Source: an uncultured archaeon
Lineage (GTDB): Archaea; Asgardarchaeota; Thorarchaeia; Thorarchaeales; Thorarchaeaceae
DNA: 32,000 nucleotides
Reading direction: 5' to 3'
NCBI GenBank assembly: GCA_964648855.1
Contig: CAZYLT010000005.1
Location: 30,001 to 62,000 of the forward strand
This document shows positions 1 through 7,362 of this stretch, one piece after another; position 1 is the stretch's first letter; every line of letters starts with the position of its first letter. Both the position numbers and the translations under genes were made by a program. Below the pieces are notes generated by a model that was not told where the DNA came from, ran no database searches, and saw nothing but the letters and a program-made list of their open reading frames with translations.

Positions 1-1584
1 TTTGAGAACCGGATGGCTGACCTGGCCTCAAACCTTCTTGTTGATTCCTTCAAAGAAAACCCTGAGGCGATTTTCAATGCTCTTTCAGTGCTAACGGAAA
101 TGAGCGAGAGTGATATCTCACAGGAGCTAGCTTCAAAGGGAGTACGAACAGGAAACGATTTGATAGAAGGATTCTCAATCGAAACTCCAGAAGAGGAAGA
201 TGACGGTGAATTAACTCTATCTCGAGAAGAGATGGAAGAGATTTCCAGGTCACTACGCAGGTTGGAGAAGATTGAACATACATTAGAAAAGCCAGTGAAA
301 GGAATGCTGCGCGCCAGAGGGTTTAGTTCATCAGAGATCGACAAGGTTTCCATTCAGACTCTGACCAAAAATCCTAGGGAACTGATTGCTACTGAATCCC
401 AAGTTATTGCTGAACTGAAAAAGAAATTACGCTTACCTTCGCCCGAAGAGATATCACAGTTGTTGGAGCTAAGGGCAGAATATGCGGATAAGAATCTGGG
501 TCAAATTGGATCTACCGCTGCACGAATGGGTCAGAAACTCCAATATGGCGAAACTGTGGAGAAACTCAAATATGATCTGGTGTGGCATCTAGTAATTTCA
601 CTGTTGAAGAACCTAGCCAGAGTCATTGAGATGTACATTCGTTCAAAGCATGATTTGGTTCGGATTAAGGCTATTCTCAAGAGCATTTACGAGGAGTCAG
701 AAATAGAACTGCAATTCCTCCGCGAAGAAATCCTCATGGATCTTGCATCTGACAGACTGCTAGAAACCAAGCGCGTACATCCGGACCTTGACGCCTCGAC
801 AATAAGATCTTGGTACCACGCAAGGCTTCAGGGAATAGATTTGAGCACTGCTGTATCAGAGGTTGAGAAGAGCCCTTCACCAGTTTTCAAGGGCATAGTT
901 GAGAAACCTCTGCAAACAGGGGCCCTCAAAATAGACAATTATGCTATTGCGTTTGACCTGATGCAGAGATTCCTTACTAAACAACGCCAAGAGAAATTGG
1001 AGCGAGAGGCTTTGATGATTGAAACAAAGAAGAGAGAAGCAAAGCTCCTTGAGTCTAAGAAAGACGAGTTGGATGTGATGAACTATGTTTCAACCAAAGC
1101 ATATACTGCCTTCCGTGCAATTGGTAGAGTAGGTAAGAGAGGTTTGGAGTGGAACTCAAACGATGACACCAAGCTGGCGAATTTGCTGTCCTTCTACATA
1201 AGGCGCAATCGAGGACGCACTATTTGTGCTGTTTGCGGAGAAGAGGTATCTGAAGGCTACTGCCCTCAACATGGCTCCGCAAATGTCCGAGATTCGAATG
1301 ATATCGATAACTTGAGCAATTTCGTTAGACAGGCTGTTTCAGACATCAAACAGGGTCTGACTGGAACTAAGAGTGAATCAATGACATGGGATGAAGCCCG
1401 TTCTCTTGTGAAAAGAGAAATCTCCAAGCTAAAGCAAAAGAGTAAACTCACAGGAAAAACTAATGTCAATAATTTGCTGCCCGGAGAAATCAACTATATA
1501 GTCGGCCCTGCAATCGCAAAGATTATCGGACGCTATTTCAACGACTCATTGAAATATGCTGCCCGTGGTGCAGATATCGCATAG
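1..1584 (+). CDS. Large helical/coiled-coil hypothetical protein (probably 5'-truncated by the window) with a C-terminal zinc-ribbon-like motif
   Basis: Frame is open from base 1 (ttt gag aac cgg atg); 523 aa from the first ATG; E/K/L-rich amphipathic helices; CAVC-x8-CPQH motif near 1225-1272. Confidence 0.75.
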   Translation, partial: FENRMADLASNLLVDSFKENPEAIFNALSVLTEMSESDISQELASKGVRTGNDLIEGFSIETPEEEDDGELTLSREEMEEISRSLRRLEKIEHTLEKPVKGMLRARGFSSSEIDKVSIQTLTKNPRELIATESQVIAELKKKLRLPSPEEISQLLELRAEYADKNLGQIGSTAARMGQKLQYGETVEKLKYDLVWHLVISLLKNLARVIEMYIRSKHDLVRIKAILKSIYEESEIELQFLREEILMDLASDRLLETKRVHPDLDASTIRSWYHARLQGIDLSTAVSEVEKSPSPVFKGIVEKPLQTGALKIDNYAIAFDLMQRFLTKQRQEKLEREALMIETKKREAKLLESKKDELDVMNYVSTKAYTAFRAIGRVGKRGLEWNSNDDTKLANLLSFYIRRNRGRTICAVCGEEVSEGYCPQHGSANVRDSNDIDNLSNFVRQAVSDIKQGLTGTKSESMTWDEARSLVKREISKLKQKSKLTGKTNVNNLLPGEINYIVGPAIAKIIGRYFNDSLKYAARGADIA

Positions 1585-1598
1585 ATTCGCGCATTGGA

Positions 1599-1913
1599 CT
1601 AGTTCACAACATCCGAAATCCACTCTAGGTATGCTTTTGCCCCCGATTCAATGTCAAATACAACGAATTCTGGGACCTCGTAGGAGTGGGATTCTTCAAC
1701 GATTGCTTGTAAGTCCCTGATGTGTTTCCCGACTGTCTTCATAACCAAAATTGATTCTATTGATCTTTCCACCTTGCCTTTCCAATGAAATATGCTATGA
1801 ACATTTTCGATTACGTTGACACAGGCCGCCTTTCTTGATTCTGCAATTACCAATGCCAGTTTGTATGCTTCTTCTACAGGGCAGGTAGTTAATGCAAGCT
1901 TGTATTCCGTCAT
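1599..1913 (-). CDS. cutA: Divalent-cation tolerance protein CutA
   Basis: Motifs TTCP..EA, AACVN, SIFHWKGKVE, MKT, HSYEVPE, YLEWI; start reassigned to ATG at 1913 (104 aa), which removes the overlap with the divergent gene. Confidence 0.93.
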   Translation of the reverse strand: MTEYKLALTTCPVEEAYKLALVIAESRKAACVNVIENVHSIFHWKGKVERSIESILVMKTVGKHIRDLQAIVEESHSYEVPEFVVFDIESGAKAYLEWISDVVN

Positions 1914-1981: not shown

Positions 1982-3382
1982 ATGGGCAAGAAGTTTTATC
2001 CACAGGGTGTGATGCCCGCCCTCGTGACTCCATTTACCAAAGATGGAGACATGATGGAGGAGAATTTTCAGCAAGTAATTGACTATACAATCGAAAAAGG
2101 TGTTACTGGGGTTGTTCCCGCAGGAACCACCGGCGAGTTCGTATACATGAGAACGGAGGAACGAAAGAAACTCCTACGCCTAACGGTAGACTATGTCAAT
2201 GGCAGGGTTCCAGTAGTTGCCGGGACAGGTCAGAATAGCACAAGAGCGACCATAGAACTGACCAAATATGCTGCTGATATCGGTTGTGACGCAGCACTGG
2301 TAATTTCCCCATTCTACCTTCGACCAAGTGATAAGGGCTACTTTGAACACTATCAAGCGGTCGCGCTAAAAGGGGGACTACCTGTTATTGCATACAATAT
2401 TCCTCAATGCACGTTGGGATGGCTGCAATCAAATGTACTTGAAGACTTGGCTGAGATTGACACCATGGTTGGCGTTAAGGATAGTAGCGGCAACATCGGT
2501 CATACAGTAGAGCTTATTCAGAAGCTTAGAGGAAAGATGTCAGTAATCATAGGACATGATGAGTGCTTTCTATCAGCTGTTGCTGCAGGGGCTGATGCTG
2601 CAATAATGGCGTCGGCAAATATCATGCCACACTTGTGGCTGGATATAATGAAGGAAGTGAAAGATGGCAATTTTGGCAAAGCAAGAGATTTGCAGCTCTC
2701 AGCTCAGACCTTTGCACGAATTGTCACACGCCACGGCGGCGCTCCTCCAGTAAAGGCTGCGCTAAGAATGATGGGCATAGATGCGGGAATTGCAAGAATG
2801 CCTTTGAACAGTGGCGGCACACTCACCGTCGAATTGAAGGATGAAATTAGGATCGAACTCGAGAAGCTTGGTCTTATCGAAAAGAAGGATCATAAGGAGC
2901 TCAAGACTGATCTTGATGTTCTTAAGGCAATAGAGAAGCAAGGATTCAAGATTTCAAATCCAGAGATGATAAAGACTTCACGCATTCATAATGATATAAT
3001 TTCAGTAGGGGTTGCTGTAGGCGCAAAGACGGGAGATCTTGGTCGTGCTTTTGCCAGGTTACTAACAACTCCCCGAAATGGTCATGAAGCCCTGACGATA
3101 ATTCTCGAGCCAAACCTTGCCGTAAAGCCTAGTAGTATCATGTGGCCTGCAAGGAGAATAAAATCAATGCGCCAGGCTTCCATGTTTTATGGACCGGTCC
3201 AATCCGGCGCTGGGAAGGCAATTTCTAGGCTCTTGCGAGATAATAGAATTCCTAGTGAGGCGTTGAATAGCCAGGCCATACTGATTGTTGCAGACATTGA
3301 CTTGAATTACAGGGATAGGCGAGCAGTGACACACGCAACAGAAGAAGCAGTACGTACTGCATTAGAGGAGATTTGGAGGTAA
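1982..3382 (+). CDS. DapA/NAL-family class I aldolase fused to a degenerate formaldehyde-activating enzyme (Fae) domain, paralog 1
   Basis: PALVTPF, GTTGE, PFY, YNIP, KDSSG (Schiff-base Lys codon 2477-2479); C-terminal AF..L..GH..L..LEPNLAVKP..IK..RQA.MFYGPVQ matches the Fae core; GGTGA SD at 1972-1976 supports ATG 1982. Confidence 0.88.
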   Translation: MGKKFYPQGVMPALVTPFTKDGDMMEENFQQVIDYTIEKGVTGVVPAGTTGEFVYMRTEERKKLLRLTVDYVNGRVPVVAGTGQNSTRATIELTKYAADIGCDAALVISPFYLRPSDKGYFEHYQAVALKGGLPVIAYNIPQCTLGWLQSNVLEDLAEIDTMVGVKDSSGNIGHTVELIQKLRGKMSVIIGHDECFLSAVAAGADAAIMASANIMPHLWLDIMKEVKDGNFGKARDLQLSAQTFARIVTRHGGAPPVKAALRMMGIDAGIARMPLNSGGTLTVELKDEIRIELEKLGLIEKKDHKELKTDLDVLKAIEKQGFKISNPEMIKTSRIHNDIISVGVAVGAKTGDLGRAFARLLTTPRNGHEALTIILEPNLAVKPSSIMWPARRIKSMRQASMFYGPVQSGAGKAISRLLRDNRIPSEALNSQAILIVADIDLNYRDRRAVTHATEEAVRTALEEIWR

Positions 3383-3387
3383 AGAGA

Positions 3388-4860
3388 ATGACCGATTTCA
3401 GGTTTAAAGGTGTATATCCAGCGCTTGTGACTCCTTTCGATGCAAATGGCGTCGAAGAGGAAGAGTACAGAAATCTGATTGATTTCACTATAAAATCAGG
3501 AGCCACCGGCATAGTGCCATGTGGTACAACTGGTGAGTTCACATCAATGCGATTCGAAGAAAAACTGGATGCAATTGAAATTGCCTGTGACGCCGCTAAG
3601 AACCGTGTGCCAGTTATTGCTGGAACTGGCGCCGCGCATACAGGGGACGTAATCAAGTTAACACGAAGAGCCGCTGAATATGGCGCAAGTGCTGCTCTTG
3701 TGGTCACACCCTACTTCCTCAAACCCAGTAACAAAGAGGTATTCGAGCACTTTGAAAAGGTTGCTAATAACTCTGATATCCCAATATTCATGTATAACAT
3801 ACCTCAAGTAACTGGAGTTCCCATGCATTGGACCCTAGTTGACGGTCTTCGGGAAATCGATGGAATCATCGGAATGAAGGATTCGAGTGGAAACCTAATC
3901 AATCTCACAACAATCCTCGTAAGAAGACCAGACGATTTTCAGGTAGTGGTCGGGCACGATGAGGTCGCATTACCGGCCCTGGCAAGTGGATGCGATGGTG
4001 CTATTCTTGCAAGTGCAAACATATTCCCTGATAGATACATCAGGATGCAGAATGCTCTAGCAGCAGGTGACCTCCGAGAGGCTCTAATCACCCAAAGGAG
4101 TATACAACGGACAGTCAGAATCATCGTAAACAAGGGTGGTGGGCTTGCTGTCAAGGCTGCACTCAACATGATGGGCATACCCGTTGGAAAAGCTAGACCT
4201 CCTTTGATTGAAGGCGATGTCTTGAGTTATGAGGATATTGATGAATTACGTACCTGCCTAGAAGACTTGCAGCTGATTCCTCGAGGACGCGTAACATTCA
4301 GAGCAGGTGAGAATTCCATTGTGGCTGAAGCATATCCAAAGGCAGTTGGCCTGGTTCCAGACTCTGTAGATGATATCTCATTGTTACATGGTGAGTCGCT
4401 TTGTGGTGGAGGTACAGAGGTTGCCCATGTTGACTTGATTGTGGGGCTACGAGATGGACCTATGAAAGAAACACTGAAGAATGCTGGAAAGATCAAGGAT
4501 GGCTTTCATTCCTCCAACATCATTAAGAGTTTAGAACCGACTACTGTCTTTGCACCAACAGTTACTGTGACAACCGAGAAACACCAGAAGCTCATCTATG
4601 ATGTTGCACAGAAAGCCGTTTCTGATGCTGTTTCCCGATCAATCACTGATGGCGTAATTCCAGAGGAGCTAGTCGATGATCTCATATTGGCTGTGAATGT
4701 TTTTGTGCATCCTGATGCAACCAATCCAAGGCGGGTTCATATCAACAACTTCAGAGCAGTGCGTCATGCATTACGCAGAGCAATCGAAGGTAGACCGTCA
4801 AGGGCCGAGATTGAAGCCCGGATTGATTCCGCTAGGCACCCATTCGCCTACAATCCATAA
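3388..4860 (+). CDS. DapA/NAL-family class I aldolase fused to a Fae domain, paralog 2
   Basis: PALVTPF, GTTGE, PYF, YNIP, KDSSG (Lys codon 3877-3879); C-terminal GESLCGGGTEVAHVDLIVG ... VFVHPDA ... RAIEGRP ... ARHPFA is a clear Fae signature; GGAGGT SD at 3375-3380; 5 nt after the paralog 1 stop. Confidence 0.9.
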   Translation: MTDFRFKGVYPALVTPFDANGVEEEEYRNLIDFTIKSGATGIVPCGTTGEFTSMRFEEKLDAIEIACDAAKNRVPVIAGTGAAHTGDVIKLTRRAAEYGASAALVVTPYFLKPSNKEVFEHFEKVANNSDIPIFMYNIPQVTGVPMHWTLVDGLREIDGIIGMKDSSGNLINLTTILVRRPDDFQVVVGHDEVALPALASGCDGAILASANIFPDRYIRMQNALAAGDLREALITQRSIQRTVRIIVNKGGGLAVKAALNMMGIPVGKARPPLIEGDVLSYEDIDELRTCLEDLQLIPRGRVTFRAGENSIVAEAYPKAVGLVPDSVDDISLLHGESLCGGGTEVAHVDLIVGLRDGPMKETLKNAGKIKDGFHSSNIIKSLEPTTVFAPTVTVTTEKHQKLIYDVAQKAVSDAVSRSITDGVIPEELVDDLILAVNVFVHPDATNPRRVHINNFRAVRHALRRAIEGRPSRAEIEARIDSARHPFAYNP

Positions 4861-5193
4861 GACAGGTCTTTCCCATATAATTGAAGTCTGTTCCAATTGG
4901 CATTAATCGATGGAGCGATATTCGGTCTCTTCAACCGAGTTAATGCAAAAATCAAACATTTGTCCATTTGTTAAGTCTGCTGCATGCTATCATGTTCTCT
5001 AGTTGCCTATGAATAGTACGTCCTGTCATGCCCATTGAAGACTTCTCTAGAAAGCCCAATGGAATGCAATAAACGGGGATTTCAACAGCCTCACTTCCGT
5101 CTATTCCTATATATAGCTGGGTGTGGACTGCATTCATGCGTCTAGCATCCTAACGGCGATGGCGTCACCACCGCATCCGTGGAATGAAAAAAT

Positions 5194-5415
5194 ATGGTTG
5201 AGACCTGCATAATCCAGCTGAAGGAGCTACCCTCACGCAGTTTACAGAGTCAAGTGCGAAGCTTCATCAATGGACAGAAGGTGTCAGTTATGGACTCATC
5301 TGGACGACTCTATGAAGTAGGAATCAAACAGAACAAGCTGGTTTTGATATCCGATGACATCTACTATGCCTACAAAACTGACGGGGATTGTGGGTTGGGT
5401 TCTGTGTCCTACTGA
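5194..5415 (+). CDS. Small hypothetical protein (73 aa)
   Basis: ATG-started ORF with plausible alpha/beta composition in an otherwise empty region; TATA-like tatatata at about 5108-5115; no recognised family, no clear SD. Confidence 0.5.
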   Translation: MVETCIIQLKELPSRSLQSQVRSFINGQKVSVMDSSGRLYEVGIKQNKLVLISDDIYYAYKTDGDCGLGSVSY

Positions 5416-5601
5416 TTGAGCAAAGACGGGTCTCAGCCACCCTCTCATTTTAGAATCTAAGAAACAATGTGGCAAGTTTCAGCCTGCTCTTGGGTCTTCA
5501 TAGCCTCGTGGCTCAGACAGGGGTAGCGTCTTCATCGACCGCTAAATAATTGGAAGAAAGATTACTTATCAATATGTGGCACTATGCGAACATTCGGCTA
5601 A

Positions 5602-6122
5602 AACATTCATCTTCTGGAATCAAAGCTGACCATCGAGTTCTGGGTGGAGGTGTAGGGTGCTAATTATGGTAGTGCCATTGGTATCTGCGCTGCTGCAAGA
5701 GACCCCCGCATCGATGCTTTATGTCTTCGTGCACCTGTTTATGATACGTTATGGTTCGCCCAATCACCTGGATTCGCCCTGCAGCTAATCACATCGTGGA
5801 AACGGGTCCAAGTCAAGTAAGAGGTATTGCTGAGCGTGACACTCAAGGCCTGATTCTCAAGACTCTGGTTGATGACGCAAAGATACACAATCCAATGAAC
5901 GCGATATCTAAGATCTCTCCTCGTCCATTATTCATCATTCACGGTTCCGATAATCAAGGCATCGACTTGGCTGGAGTCAAGCGTCTTTTTAAAGCGGCTG
6001 GTGAGCCAAAGGACCTAGCTGTTGTTGAAGGTGCTGACCATGTATTATCTGACCCCACTGCGTATGAGATTACAATGGAATCCACGGTTTATTGGTCTTC
6101 AAATATATCCAAAGCAAGATAG
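5602..6122 (+). pseudogene. Decayed alpha/beta-hydrolase pseudogene
   Basis: One frame reads LLESKLTIEFWVEV*GANYGSAIGICAAARDPRIDALCLRAPVYD (nucleophile-elbow region, in-frame TAG 5653-5655), then shifts frame near 5768 into WIRPAANHI...ISPRPLFIIHGSDN...VEGADH; N-terminal part not recognisable. Confidence 0.8.
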
Positions 6123-6222
6123 GGCCGTAATTAGAGAAGGCGAAACAATAATACCCAGGGCACATGATAGGTTATTGCTAATGAAGGAAATTTGCTTCCT
6201 TCCAAAGCCGAGGTGACAAGAC

Positions 6223-7362
6223 TTGGATCGCAGCAGAATGACACAGCTCGCACAGCAACTTGTTTCCATAAACTCAGAGAGTCCTCCTGGCAGGGAAGAG
6301 GATGTGGCCAACTTCCTGAAGGAGTATATGGAGAACCAAGGAATCTCCTGCAGGAGCGTGGGCCCTACTTCTCGCCCGAACCTGTTATTTTCAACCCATG
6401 ATGGCGAAACTGCAGACCTCGTATTGCATGGGCATATGGATACAGTACCGGCTGGGAATATTGAGCAGTGGTCATATGACCCTTTCTCGGGAGCCATTGA
6501 GTCTGGTAGGTTGTATGGTCGTGGTGCGTGTGATATGAAGGGGCCGCTTGCTACCTTGGCTGAAACTATGATCTGCTATAAGGAGGAGAAACACCACACA
6601 CCACTTCTGATGCTTGCCACCTCTGATGAGGAAAGCGGATGTTCTGGAGCAGAGGAGATTGCTAACAGCGGGATTCTCAAAGGTGTTAGATATGGCGTCT
6701 GCGCAGAACCTACGTCACTAGACATTTTGGTTGGAGAAAAGGGCATGCTATGGACAAAGATATCGGCAAGAGGAAAATCAGCTCATGGGTCAAGGCCGGA
6801 AGAAGGCATTAATGCCATTGAGTGGTGTGTGAGAGCCACTTCGTTGCTCATTGAACAGGATTACCCTTACGAACCTGATAACGTCATGGGCGAGATGACC
6901 GTTAATCTTGGAATTATGAAGGGCGGCGTCAAAATCAATGTTGTTCCAAGTGATTGTGAATCACATCTAGACATGCGATTGGTAAAAGGCCAAACAATCG
7001 AGGGAATTATGGGAATCATGCAACAGGTTCTAGATGATGCCCAATTATCTGATAGGATTGAAATCGAATATATCCATGGAAAGCCTGCAGTGATCACCCC
7101 ACATGATTCCCCAATTGTTGAAATGGTAGTATCAGCTATCGAGTCCAATGTTGGGTTCAAAGGCAGTATGAAAGCCGCAACATATGGCACCGATTGCTCC
7201 GTTTTGCAGCCAAAAATTGGAATAACTAATGTCATATGCGGACCAGGGTCAATTGAACAAGCCCATCAGCCAGATGAATTTATAGAGATAGAACAAATGA
7301 AGCAGGCGGTAGAGGTATACTTGGATGTAGCTCGCCAATTCGATTCTCATGAACAGGAATGA
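6223..7362 (+). CDS. M20-family metallo-amidohydrolase (ArgE/DapE-like deacylase)
   Basis: HGHMDTVP, LYGRGACDMKG, SDEESG, AEPT, GKSAHGS.PEEGINAI, GG.KINVVP, GPGSIEQAHQPDE; GAGGTGA SD before TTG 6223. Confidence 0.92.
   Translation: MDRSRMTQLAQQLVSINSESPPGREEDVANFLKEYMENQGISCRSVGPTSRPNLLFSTHDGETADLVLHGHMDTVPAGNIEQWSYDPFSGAIESGRLYGRGACDMKGPLATLAETMICYKEEKHHTPLLMLATSDEESGCSGAEEIANSGILKGVRYGVCAEPTSLDILVGEKGMLWTKISARGKSAHGSRPEEGINAIEWCVRATSLLIEQDYPYEPDNVMGEMTVNLGIMKGGVKINVVPSDCESHLDMRLVKGQTIEGIMGIMQQVLDDAQLSDRIEIEYIHGKPAVITPHDSPIVEMVVSAIESNVGFKGSMKAATYGTDCSVLQPKIGITNVICGPGSIEQAHQPDEFIEIEQMKQAVEVYLDVARQFDSHEQE

Follow-up and report, generated by a model that had tools for sequence, protein, structure and literature searches.

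The window analysed here is a stretch of 32,000 nucleotides from a member of the Thorarchaeaceae (assembly GCA_964648855.1, contig CAZYLT010000005.1, positions 30,001 to 62,000), lying on contig C5 of a source assembly of 3.1 Mb and 94.6% completeness. It contains two adjacent genes, P1 and P2 (Table 1, in window coordinates), each of which encodes an aldolase barrel of the DHDPS family followed by a domain of the Fae type. The two proteins share 34% identity, and the Pfam profiles give the same domain order in both, the DHDPS barrel (PF00701, with E-values of 1.4e-73 for P1 and 2.3e-71 for P2) preceding the Fae domain (PF08714, 9.2e-25 and 1.4e-32, respectively). The Pfam Fae scores, 87.9 bits for P1 and 113.3 bits for P2, are both above the cut-off of 27; under the NCBIfam Fae model TIGR03126 (equivalog_domain cut-off 118.05) P2 passes with 121.4 and P1 falls below with 78.0. 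These are the only two Fae domains of the window's genome. An alternative start of P1 is possible at GTG 1973, and the reading frame of P2 is open from TTG 3373. At the junction of the genes, a Shine-Dalgarno-like GGAGG (3375-3379) is placed within the 3' end of P1, followed by the P1 stop codon TAA (3380-3382), a spacer of 5 nt and the ATG of P2, a layout that would allow translational coupling.

Table 1. Coordinates of the P1/P2 genes, their domains and junction, and of members of an associated protein family on other contigs
Feature	Position	Strand	Basis or landmark residues
P1 gene, DHDPS-family aldolase plus Fae-like domain, 466 aa	1982..3382	+	ATG 1982 matches ortholog N-termini
P1 class I aldolase barrel	2003..2812	+	GTTGE, Tyr in YNIP 2393-2395, Schiff-base Lys in GVKDSSG 2477-2479
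P1 Fae-like domain	3002..3370	+	PF08714 and alignment
Gene junction	3375..3387	+	Read from sequence
P2 gene, DHDPS-family aldolase plus Fae domain, 490 aa	3388..4860	+	ATG 3388 matches ortholog N-termini
P2 class I aldolase barrel	3403..4212	+	GTTGE, Tyr 3793-3795, Schiff-base Lys in GMKDSSG 3877-3879
P2 Fae domain	4390..4845	+	PF08714 and alignment
428-aa family member, window's genome (G000)	C37:9372-10631 = L044:1498-2790	-	
428-aa family member	L041:6694-7977		
428-aa family member	L079:1681-2946		

Canonical Fae is reportedly a stand-alone homopentamer of subunits of ~170 aa, in which methylene-tetrahydromethanopterin (methylene-H4MPT) is bound between adjacent subunits. His22 is said to be the proposed acid catalyst, and on binding the side chain of Gln88 reportedly flips while the C-terminal arm becomes rigid. 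Against this background, alignment of the two domains to the M. extorquens Fae (PDB 1y5y) and to canonical Asgard Fae confirms the reciprocal pattern of motifs that the preliminary description of this DNA had drawn. The P1 domain retains GHEAL (from 3080), LEPNLAVKP (3104-3130) and RQASMFYGPVQ (3170-3202). In place of EVAH it has DIISV, with a serine codon (3002-3004) at the position of the histidine, and in place of VFxHP it has ADIDL; it stops at profile position 135 of 159, some 25-30 residues short, and is without the C-terminal HPF arm, such that no histidine of the Fae signature is left in the P1 of this genome. The P2 domain retains GE..G.G.EVAH (histidine codon CAT, 4426-4428), VFVHP (His 4708-4710), NNF and ARHPFA (histidine codon CAC, 4837-4839), the EVAH and ARHPFA codons being those that the description had named. 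Its PNL loop is deleted (SLEPTTVFAP), and LIYDVAQ replaces QA..FGPAQ. The further claim that P2 has lost QAxxFGP holds for FGP, for which it has YDV, but not for the residue aligned with Gln88, which is kept here (VAQ) and is a glutamine in only 10% of P2 proteins. In other words, His22, the PNLxxKP and FGPxQ elements and the HPF arm are all present only when the pair is taken together.

The two genes are found together well beyond this genome. A scan of the phylum covered 400 genomes, among them 85 others of the window's family, of which 78 have Fae matches, almost always exactly two and with E ~1e-30. Both P1 and P2 are present, adjacent and in the order P1 to P2 in 71 of the 79 Fae-bearing genomes of the family; these pairs lie on a single contig and strand with the Fae matches ~1.4 kb apart, the shortened type (profile ~10-135) upstream of the full type (2-158). 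Every singleton in the family lies at the edge of a contig or in an assembly of poor quality, all 30 of the family loci that were retrieved have intact tandem open reading frames (ORFs), and seven family genomes, two of them 90% and 93% complete, have neither gene. Other Asgard families have canonical Fae-Hps (E ~1e-70, ORF of ~400-450 aa), which the window's family does not.

Beyond the family, searching 1.84 billion representative proteins gave about a dozen 50%-identity clusters with the DHDPS-Fae architecture. A scan of one genome per species gave 80 loci from Bathyarchaeia, Thermoplasmata/Methanomassiliicoccales, Chloroflexota (the majority), Thermodesulfobacteriota, Brocadiia, Baldrarchaeum and Heimdallarchaeota. 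The pair itself occurs in Bathyarchaeia, Thermoplasmata, Chloroflexota, Thermodesulfobacteriota and Brocadiia, always in the order P1 to P2, and is commonest in Anaerolineae. P2 lies downstream on the same strand at 47 of the 61 P1 loci of other phyla, overlapping or abutting in 31; at the others it is split or partial (three), off the contig end (six) or not nearby (five), and in all five of these last genomes a P2-type gene is found elsewhere. The junctions overlap or span 4-5 nt in most loci. The expectation that P1 and P2 always occur together is thereby borne out, since the family singletons are assembly-limited and both genes are present in all five unlinked cases, and it can be said with considerable confidence that they form an obligate functional pair.

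The split of motifs is accompanied by a split of constraint, as determined from 71 P1, 59 P2 and 29 canonical sequences together with 28 of a complete fusion type described below, P1 and P2 being drawn from at least eight phyla. In the numbering of alignment columns used here, H26 corresponds to His22 and Q92 to Gln88. P2 retains E15 (100%), A25 (100%), H26 (98%), F123 (100%), H125 (98%), N138 (100%) and H168/P169 (100%). P1 retains P62 (99%), A84 (99%), G89 (99%), P90 (97%) and Q92 (99%), of which G89, P90 and Q92 stand at only 0-10% in P2; in canonical Fae G89 and Q92 are at 100% and P90 at 93%, and in the complete fusion all three are at 100%. The C-terminal arm is missing in 71 of 71 P1 proteins, and 52 of 59 P2 proteins have a deletion of the PNL loop. 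The only universal differences are the arm with E15, A25, F123 and N138, which are found in P2 only, and the PNL loop with GP.Q, found in P1 only.

At the level of segments, the hairpin, the TLxxP.V strand, VFxHP, NNY and the C-terminal arm are held in P2 as tightly as in canonical Fae, and in P1 they are loose or absent. Mean column entropy in the hairpin is 0.92 bits in P2, 1.82 in P1 and 0.67 in canonical Fae, and the corresponding values for P2 and P1 are 0.55 and 1.56 bits in VFxHP and 0.68 and 1.90 bits in NNY. In P1 the tight segments are the GH..L strand, the PNL loop and the QA..GP.Q helix, all of which are loose in P2 (0.64 against 2.51 bits, 0.66 against 1.65 bits and 0.70 against 1.68 bits, respectively). 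This segment-level split holds in the whole set and also when the 31 Thorarchaeota pairs are taken by themselves. Between P1 and P2 the entropy profiles are uncorrelated (r = 0.05), although each correlates with that of the complete type (0.41 for P1 and 0.48 for P2). Eight of the nine columns conserved in P1 only fall in the block 52-94 (hypergeometric p = 1.5e-4, for a block chosen post hoc). As read from the alignments, the reciprocity signal is one of segments, made up of the block clustering of P1-only sites plus the co-occurrence of the genes.

The complete type is a third form of the fusion, a single gene of 495-496 aa with every Fae motif (GE..E[VL]AH, EPNxxVKP, [QH]A..YGPAQ, VFVHP, NNY and ARHPF). 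It is abundant in Loki- and Hodarchaeia, and a further 19 loci lie in Bathyarchaeia and a Heimdallarchaeote. In a tree with stand-alone DHDPS proteins all the fusions form one clade (support 98), within which P2 and the complete type are each monophyletic (99 and 100, respectively) and the topology is compatible with a P1 clade. The branching order of the three is a polytomy, with p = 0.48 in the approximately unbiased test for a clade of P1 and P2, and the subtrees of P1 and P2 mirror each other pair by pair. Since canonical Fae and the complete fusion share all the motifs, the losses in P1 and P2 are derived.

Turning to the barrels, both retain the Schiff-base lysine, the YNIP tyrosine, GTTGE and GxDE, such that equivalents of DapA Lys161, Tyr133 and Thr44/45 are present, and 68 of 69 P1 and 58 of 59 P2 proteins have their aldolase catalytic residues intact. 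In the public record, close Thorarchaeota relatives bear the name ‘4-hydroxy-tetrahydrodipicolinate synthase’, and the scores of the window's proteins against the DapA model TIGR00674 (214.4 and 236.0) are both above its cut-off of 206.15. In DapA, Arg138 binds the carboxylate of aspartate-semialdehyde. At this position P1 has a cysteine (2408-2410) and P2 a valine (3808-3810), and none of the 155 fusion proteins examined has an arginine there; because of this replacement, the annotation of P1 and P2 as DapA is not supported by their sequences. The best explanation of the residues present would be that the barrels are pyruvate-type Schiff-base (class I) aldolases of the DHDPS/NAL family other than DapA. 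The sole other DHDPS-family gene of the genome (contig C15, 16233-17090, minus strand) has GNTGE and VGVKY motifs, which are not those of DapA, and looks KdgD-like (5-dehydro-4-deoxyglucarate dehydratase-like); no true DapA-like gene was seen in the assembly, at its completeness of 94.6%.

One locus separates the two parts of the fusion. In L045:4544-7449 (GCA_003560875.1) both barrels are without the Schiff-base lysine (ALADSSG and GILDATG), GTTGE and YNIP, and despite these losses the pair still keeps its complementary sets of Fae motifs. The degradation of the barrels with retention of the Fae sets points to a selected function of the paired Fae part, which selection seems to maintain in this lineage. 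An archaeal RibD_C reductase gene is coupled upstream of the pair at the same locus.

From the domain make-up, the reciprocal constraint, the co-occurrence and fixed order of the genes and the existence of a complete relative, we infer that P1 and P2 may be subunits of one conserved, uncharacterised hetero-oligomeric enzyme, the Fae site of which would be shared across the P2-P1 interface; we would put the chances of this being correct at about even. The premise is that the two motif sets would occupy opposite sides of the cleft between Fae subunits. The Fae domains would then pair over the P2-P1 interface to give a single formaldehyde/pterin site, to which P2 would contribute the beta-hairpin that bears the catalytic histidine (EVAH), along with its VFxHP strand, NNY helix and C-terminal HPF arm. 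P1 would contribute its GHEAL strand, PNLxxKP loop and QAxxYGPxQ helix, the last with the Gln88 element. The reciprocal faces would be unused, having drifted or been deleted. A composite active site is the most economical, if unproven, reading of the alignments, because without it no intact site would be left in either protein, even though each half is constrained across phyla to the degree seen in canonical Fae. On the analogy of Fae-Hps, the one-carbon unit (formaldehyde in exchange with methylene-pterin) would be passed to or from the aldolase barrels, for which the candidate reaction, put forward with low confidence, is the reversible addition of HCHO to pyruvate to give 4-hydroxy-2-oxobutanoate, a PanB-like hydroxymethyl transfer.

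The preliminary description had further argued that the split resolves a symmetry mismatch between a pentameric Fae and a tetrameric aldolase. This argument is unnecessary, since the complete fusion, which is common, has the same two folds in a single gene with a complete Fae domain; a D5 decamer of two Fae rings bridged by aldolase dimers, for instance, would fit both folds.

Several observations weigh against the composite site, or at least against its simplest form. Site by site, complementarity is no more than expected by chance: 18 conserved sites are held by both proteins, 15 by P2 only, nine by P1 only and five by neither (Fisher p = 0.75). Across the conserved columns, entropy likewise gives no reciprocity beyond chance (correlation r = -0.16, p = 0.22), and runs of P1-only and P2-only sites cluster only weakly. 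Moreover, P1 keeps His22 in 17% of cases (in Thermoplasmata, Bathyarchaeia and Brocadiia, with a glutamine there in Chloroflexota) and the VFxH histidine in 73%, and for this reason its face is not dead everywhere. The earlier notion that each copy retained one face of the cleft is accordingly apt for Thorarchaeota, whose P1 is the most reduced form, but not for other lineages, in which P1 often keeps the VFxH histidine and sometimes His22. The duplication is ancient and extends across domains of life, rather than being a recent degeneration, which weakens the earlier claim. P2 by itself exceeds the NCBIfam Fae cut-off, as given above, and Tyr107 of the aldolase tight dimer has no consistent asymmetry between the partners. 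Asymmetry at Tyr106/107 had been considered as evidence of a heterodimer and was discarded, as the combinations vary (YF/YY 20, YY/FY 8, YF/YF 8, FF/YY 8 and others) and that of the window's pair is the reverse of the majority. With regard to the cofactor, beta-RFAP synthase, an enzyme of methanopterin synthesis, was not found in the window's genome (94.6% complete) nor in any of five other pair-bearing genomes (two Anaerolineae, one Methanomassiliicoccales, one Brocadiia and one Thermodesulfobacteriota). A role of the pair as a replacement route to homoserine was also rejected: homoserine dehydrogenase, missing from the window's assembly, is present in the sister genome G386, and its absence is probably an assembly gap.

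Three other accounts of the pair have to be set against a shared site. It could be that the Fae site of P2 is self-sufficient, possibly by way of a P2-P2 contact, with the Fae-like domain of P1 serving as a non-catalytic pterin-binding, regulatory or structural pseudoenzyme partner, in which case assembly through the aldolase barrels may still take place. Such an account has in its favour that P2 keeps the catalytic histidine, GE, VFxHP, NNY and the C-terminal arm and passes the NCBIfam threshold that P1 fails, and that P1 in this genome is devoid of Fae-signature histidines; we nevertheless think it unlikely, since P2 is universally without the PNL loop and the G89/P90/Q92 residues that canonical Fae keeps at 93-100%, while P1 holds these same elements at 97-99% across the phyla compared, something that is hard to explain if P1 does not participate.

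We hold it equally unlikely that no Fae chemistry is left at all, the Fae-like pair having been repurposed (to bind a different ligand or carrier, for instance, or to serve as a scaffold for oligomerisation), with the real chemistry being that of the barrels. The distribution would accord with this, in that the pair is commonest in Anaerolineae and occurs also in Methanomassiliicoccales, Brocadiia and Thermodesulfobacteriota, with beta-RFAP synthase in none of the five such genomes nor in the window's own; both domains score far below canonical Fae (E ~1e-30 against 1e-70), and the conserved neighbours are two TIM-barrel-like proteins of unknown family rather than one-carbon enzymes. Against this account, the catalytic histidine, the Gln88 element and the HPF of the C-terminal arm are each kept at 98-100% in one partner, the L045 pair loses its aldolase catalytic residues and keeps its Fae motifs, and a pterin carrier of one-carbon units is available in the window's genome, as described below. 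Finally, that P1 and P2 are independent homo-oligomers with separate, diverged functions that merely share an operon is very improbable, for although each barrel could act alone, having kept the full catalytic set, and the genes are unlinked in five genomes, both are present wherever the assembly permits a check and are apparently lost jointly (in the seven family genomes with neither), their order is fixed with overlapping junctions or junctions of 4-5 nt in most loci, their trees mirror each other, and each homomer would be left without an intact Fae site.

Returning to the shared site, the reaction and the cofactor we likewise infer. The window's genome has MCH, together with FTHFS and FolD as adjacent genes on contig C1, and so a pterin carrier of one-carbon units is available to it; as beta-RFAP synthase was not detected, this carrier may not be H4MPT. 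It could be H4MPT, tetrahydrofolate (THF) or neither. No Hps or Phi above cut-off was found in this genome. It is conceivable, though somewhat doubtful, that the P1/P2 pair and its complete relative move a one-carbon unit between methylene-pterin (H4MPT or THF) and a pyruvate-type 2-oxoacid. On this tentative proposal, the Fae-type domain would release or capture formaldehyde beside a Schiff-base aldolase, the two-gene form having its site across the paralogs. Two highly conserved TIM-barrel-like neighbour proteins would possibly act together with the pair.

The gene neighbours of P1 and P2 vary between loci. At a metagenomic locus, L036:2279-8471, a class I/II aminotransferase lies upstream of the pair and a B12-binding corrinoid protein with a URO-D-family methyltransferase downstream, which suggests a one-carbon or methyl-transfer context. 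Two protein families recur. The first, of 428 aa, sits immediately upstream of either the complete fusion or the pair in at least 16 loci and is unlinked in the window's genome (Table 1). Its identity between Asgard archaea, Bathyarchaeia and Anaerolineae is 61-70%, and it gave no sequence match in Pfam, NCBIfam or the PDB. The AlphaFold2 model is poor (predicted local distance difference test score, pLDDT, of 54) and appears TIM-barrel-like, with glutamate mutase E as best structural match (Z 10), a match that does not stand out among barrels. The second, of 316 aa, occurs at 21 loci, often ~4 nt upstream of P1 (L080:2006-2953 on the plus strand, and L073, L084, L093 and L087). Its mean column identity is 71% among 12 members from Chloroflexota, Thermoplasmata, Bathyarchaeia and Baldrarchaeum; it too is without a sequence match in Pfam, NCBIfam or the PDB, and it was not found in the window's genome. 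Its AlphaFold2 model (pLDDT 76) is a predicted TIM barrel with weak similarity to class II fructose-bisphosphate/tagatose-bisphosphate aldolases.

Around the pair in the window itself, a divergent CutA1 gene (1599-1886, minus strand) has an ORF that overlaps the start region of P1, and further upstream is the end of a large protein (13-1584, plus strand; 523+ aa) with a CxxC..CPxH motif and no Pfam match. Downstream, the ~1.36 kb between P2 and an M20 peptidase gene at 6223-7362 (4861-6222) hold short ORFs only, the longest of which (5751-6122, 123 aa) has no Pfam match; this region may be what is left of a decayed gene, or else a spacer of unusual length. There are no Rfam matches in the window.

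The pair matters, in the first place, for annotation, as in hundreds of genomes these genes carry the name of the lysine enzyme DapA, a label that the sequences do not support. Since the pair holds the only Fae-type domains, accounts of formaldehyde and one-carbon handling in Thorarchaeota must also include it. Should the composite site be true, it would offer a clear case, in prokaryotes, of paralogs that divide an interface active site between them, and one with comparators at hand, namely a living unpartitioned relative and a lineage that maintains only the Fae half. If the aldolase were to use formaldehyde, it would be a natural counterpart of the engineered formaldehyde-assimilating aldolase routes, and if the one-carbon transfer outlined above were true, it would form an undescribed and widespread C1-C3/C4 link in anaerobes (Asgard archaea, Bathyarchaeia, Thermoplasmata and Anaerolineae).

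A literature search found no description of a DHDPS-Fae fusion. Its parts, Fae and the DHDPS/NAL aldolases, are known, its architecture parallels that of Fae-Hps, and the logic of a shared site is established for the deoxyhypusine synthase (DHS) of trypanosomatids. With Fae itself (M. extorquens, PDB 1Y5Y/1Y60; PF08714; TIGR03126), P1 and P2 jointly have in common the His22 hairpin, PNLxxKP, FGPxQ, VFxH and the HPF arm. In Fae, however, every chain has all the motifs, whereas here they are divided over two paralogs, each behind an aldolase barrel, and the cofactor may not be the same. Fae-Hps (NF009833), found in methanogens and most other Asgard archaea, is likewise a fusion of Fae and a TIM barrel of the aldolase type, which would produce or consume formaldehyde, and the slot that it fills in other Asgard families is filled in the window's family by P1/P2 alone. 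Its barrel, in contrast, is an OMPDC-type Hps placed C-terminal to Fae, while in P1 and P2 a class I DHDPS/NAL barrel is N-terminal and the proteins end with Fae; it is, moreover, one bifunctional protein and not two paralogous chains with split motifs. The window's proteins score 63 and 93 bits against NF009833 (cut-off 274), the match being to the Fae part only.

With the DHDPS/NAL aldolases (DapA, NanA and the KDG aldolases; PF00701), the barrels share the Schiff-base lysine, the YNxP tyrosine, the GTTGE threonines and GxDE, and differ from them in the added Fae domain and in the cysteine or valine at the position of DapA Arg138. PanB is a metal-dependent enzyme that transfers a one-carbon unit from methylene-pterin to the carbon beside the 2-oxo group of a 2-oxoacid, which is the overall type of reaction proposed for P1/P2. 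This likeness is a functional analogy only, as the fold of PanB is unrelated and has no Fae domain, and no homology is claimed. A precedent for the arrangement is that of the trypanosomatid DHS, whose paralogs, according to the summary in PMC7581365, are each impaired and combine as a heterodimer in which one interface site works and the other is dead, as shown by a crystal structure and assays. Of the features looked for in pairs of this type (DHSc/DHSp), P1/P2 have constant co-occurrence and the lack of a different part of the ancestral site in each paralog. The fold and the chemistry are different from those of DHS, and the arrangement in P1/P2 is proposed from sequence alone.

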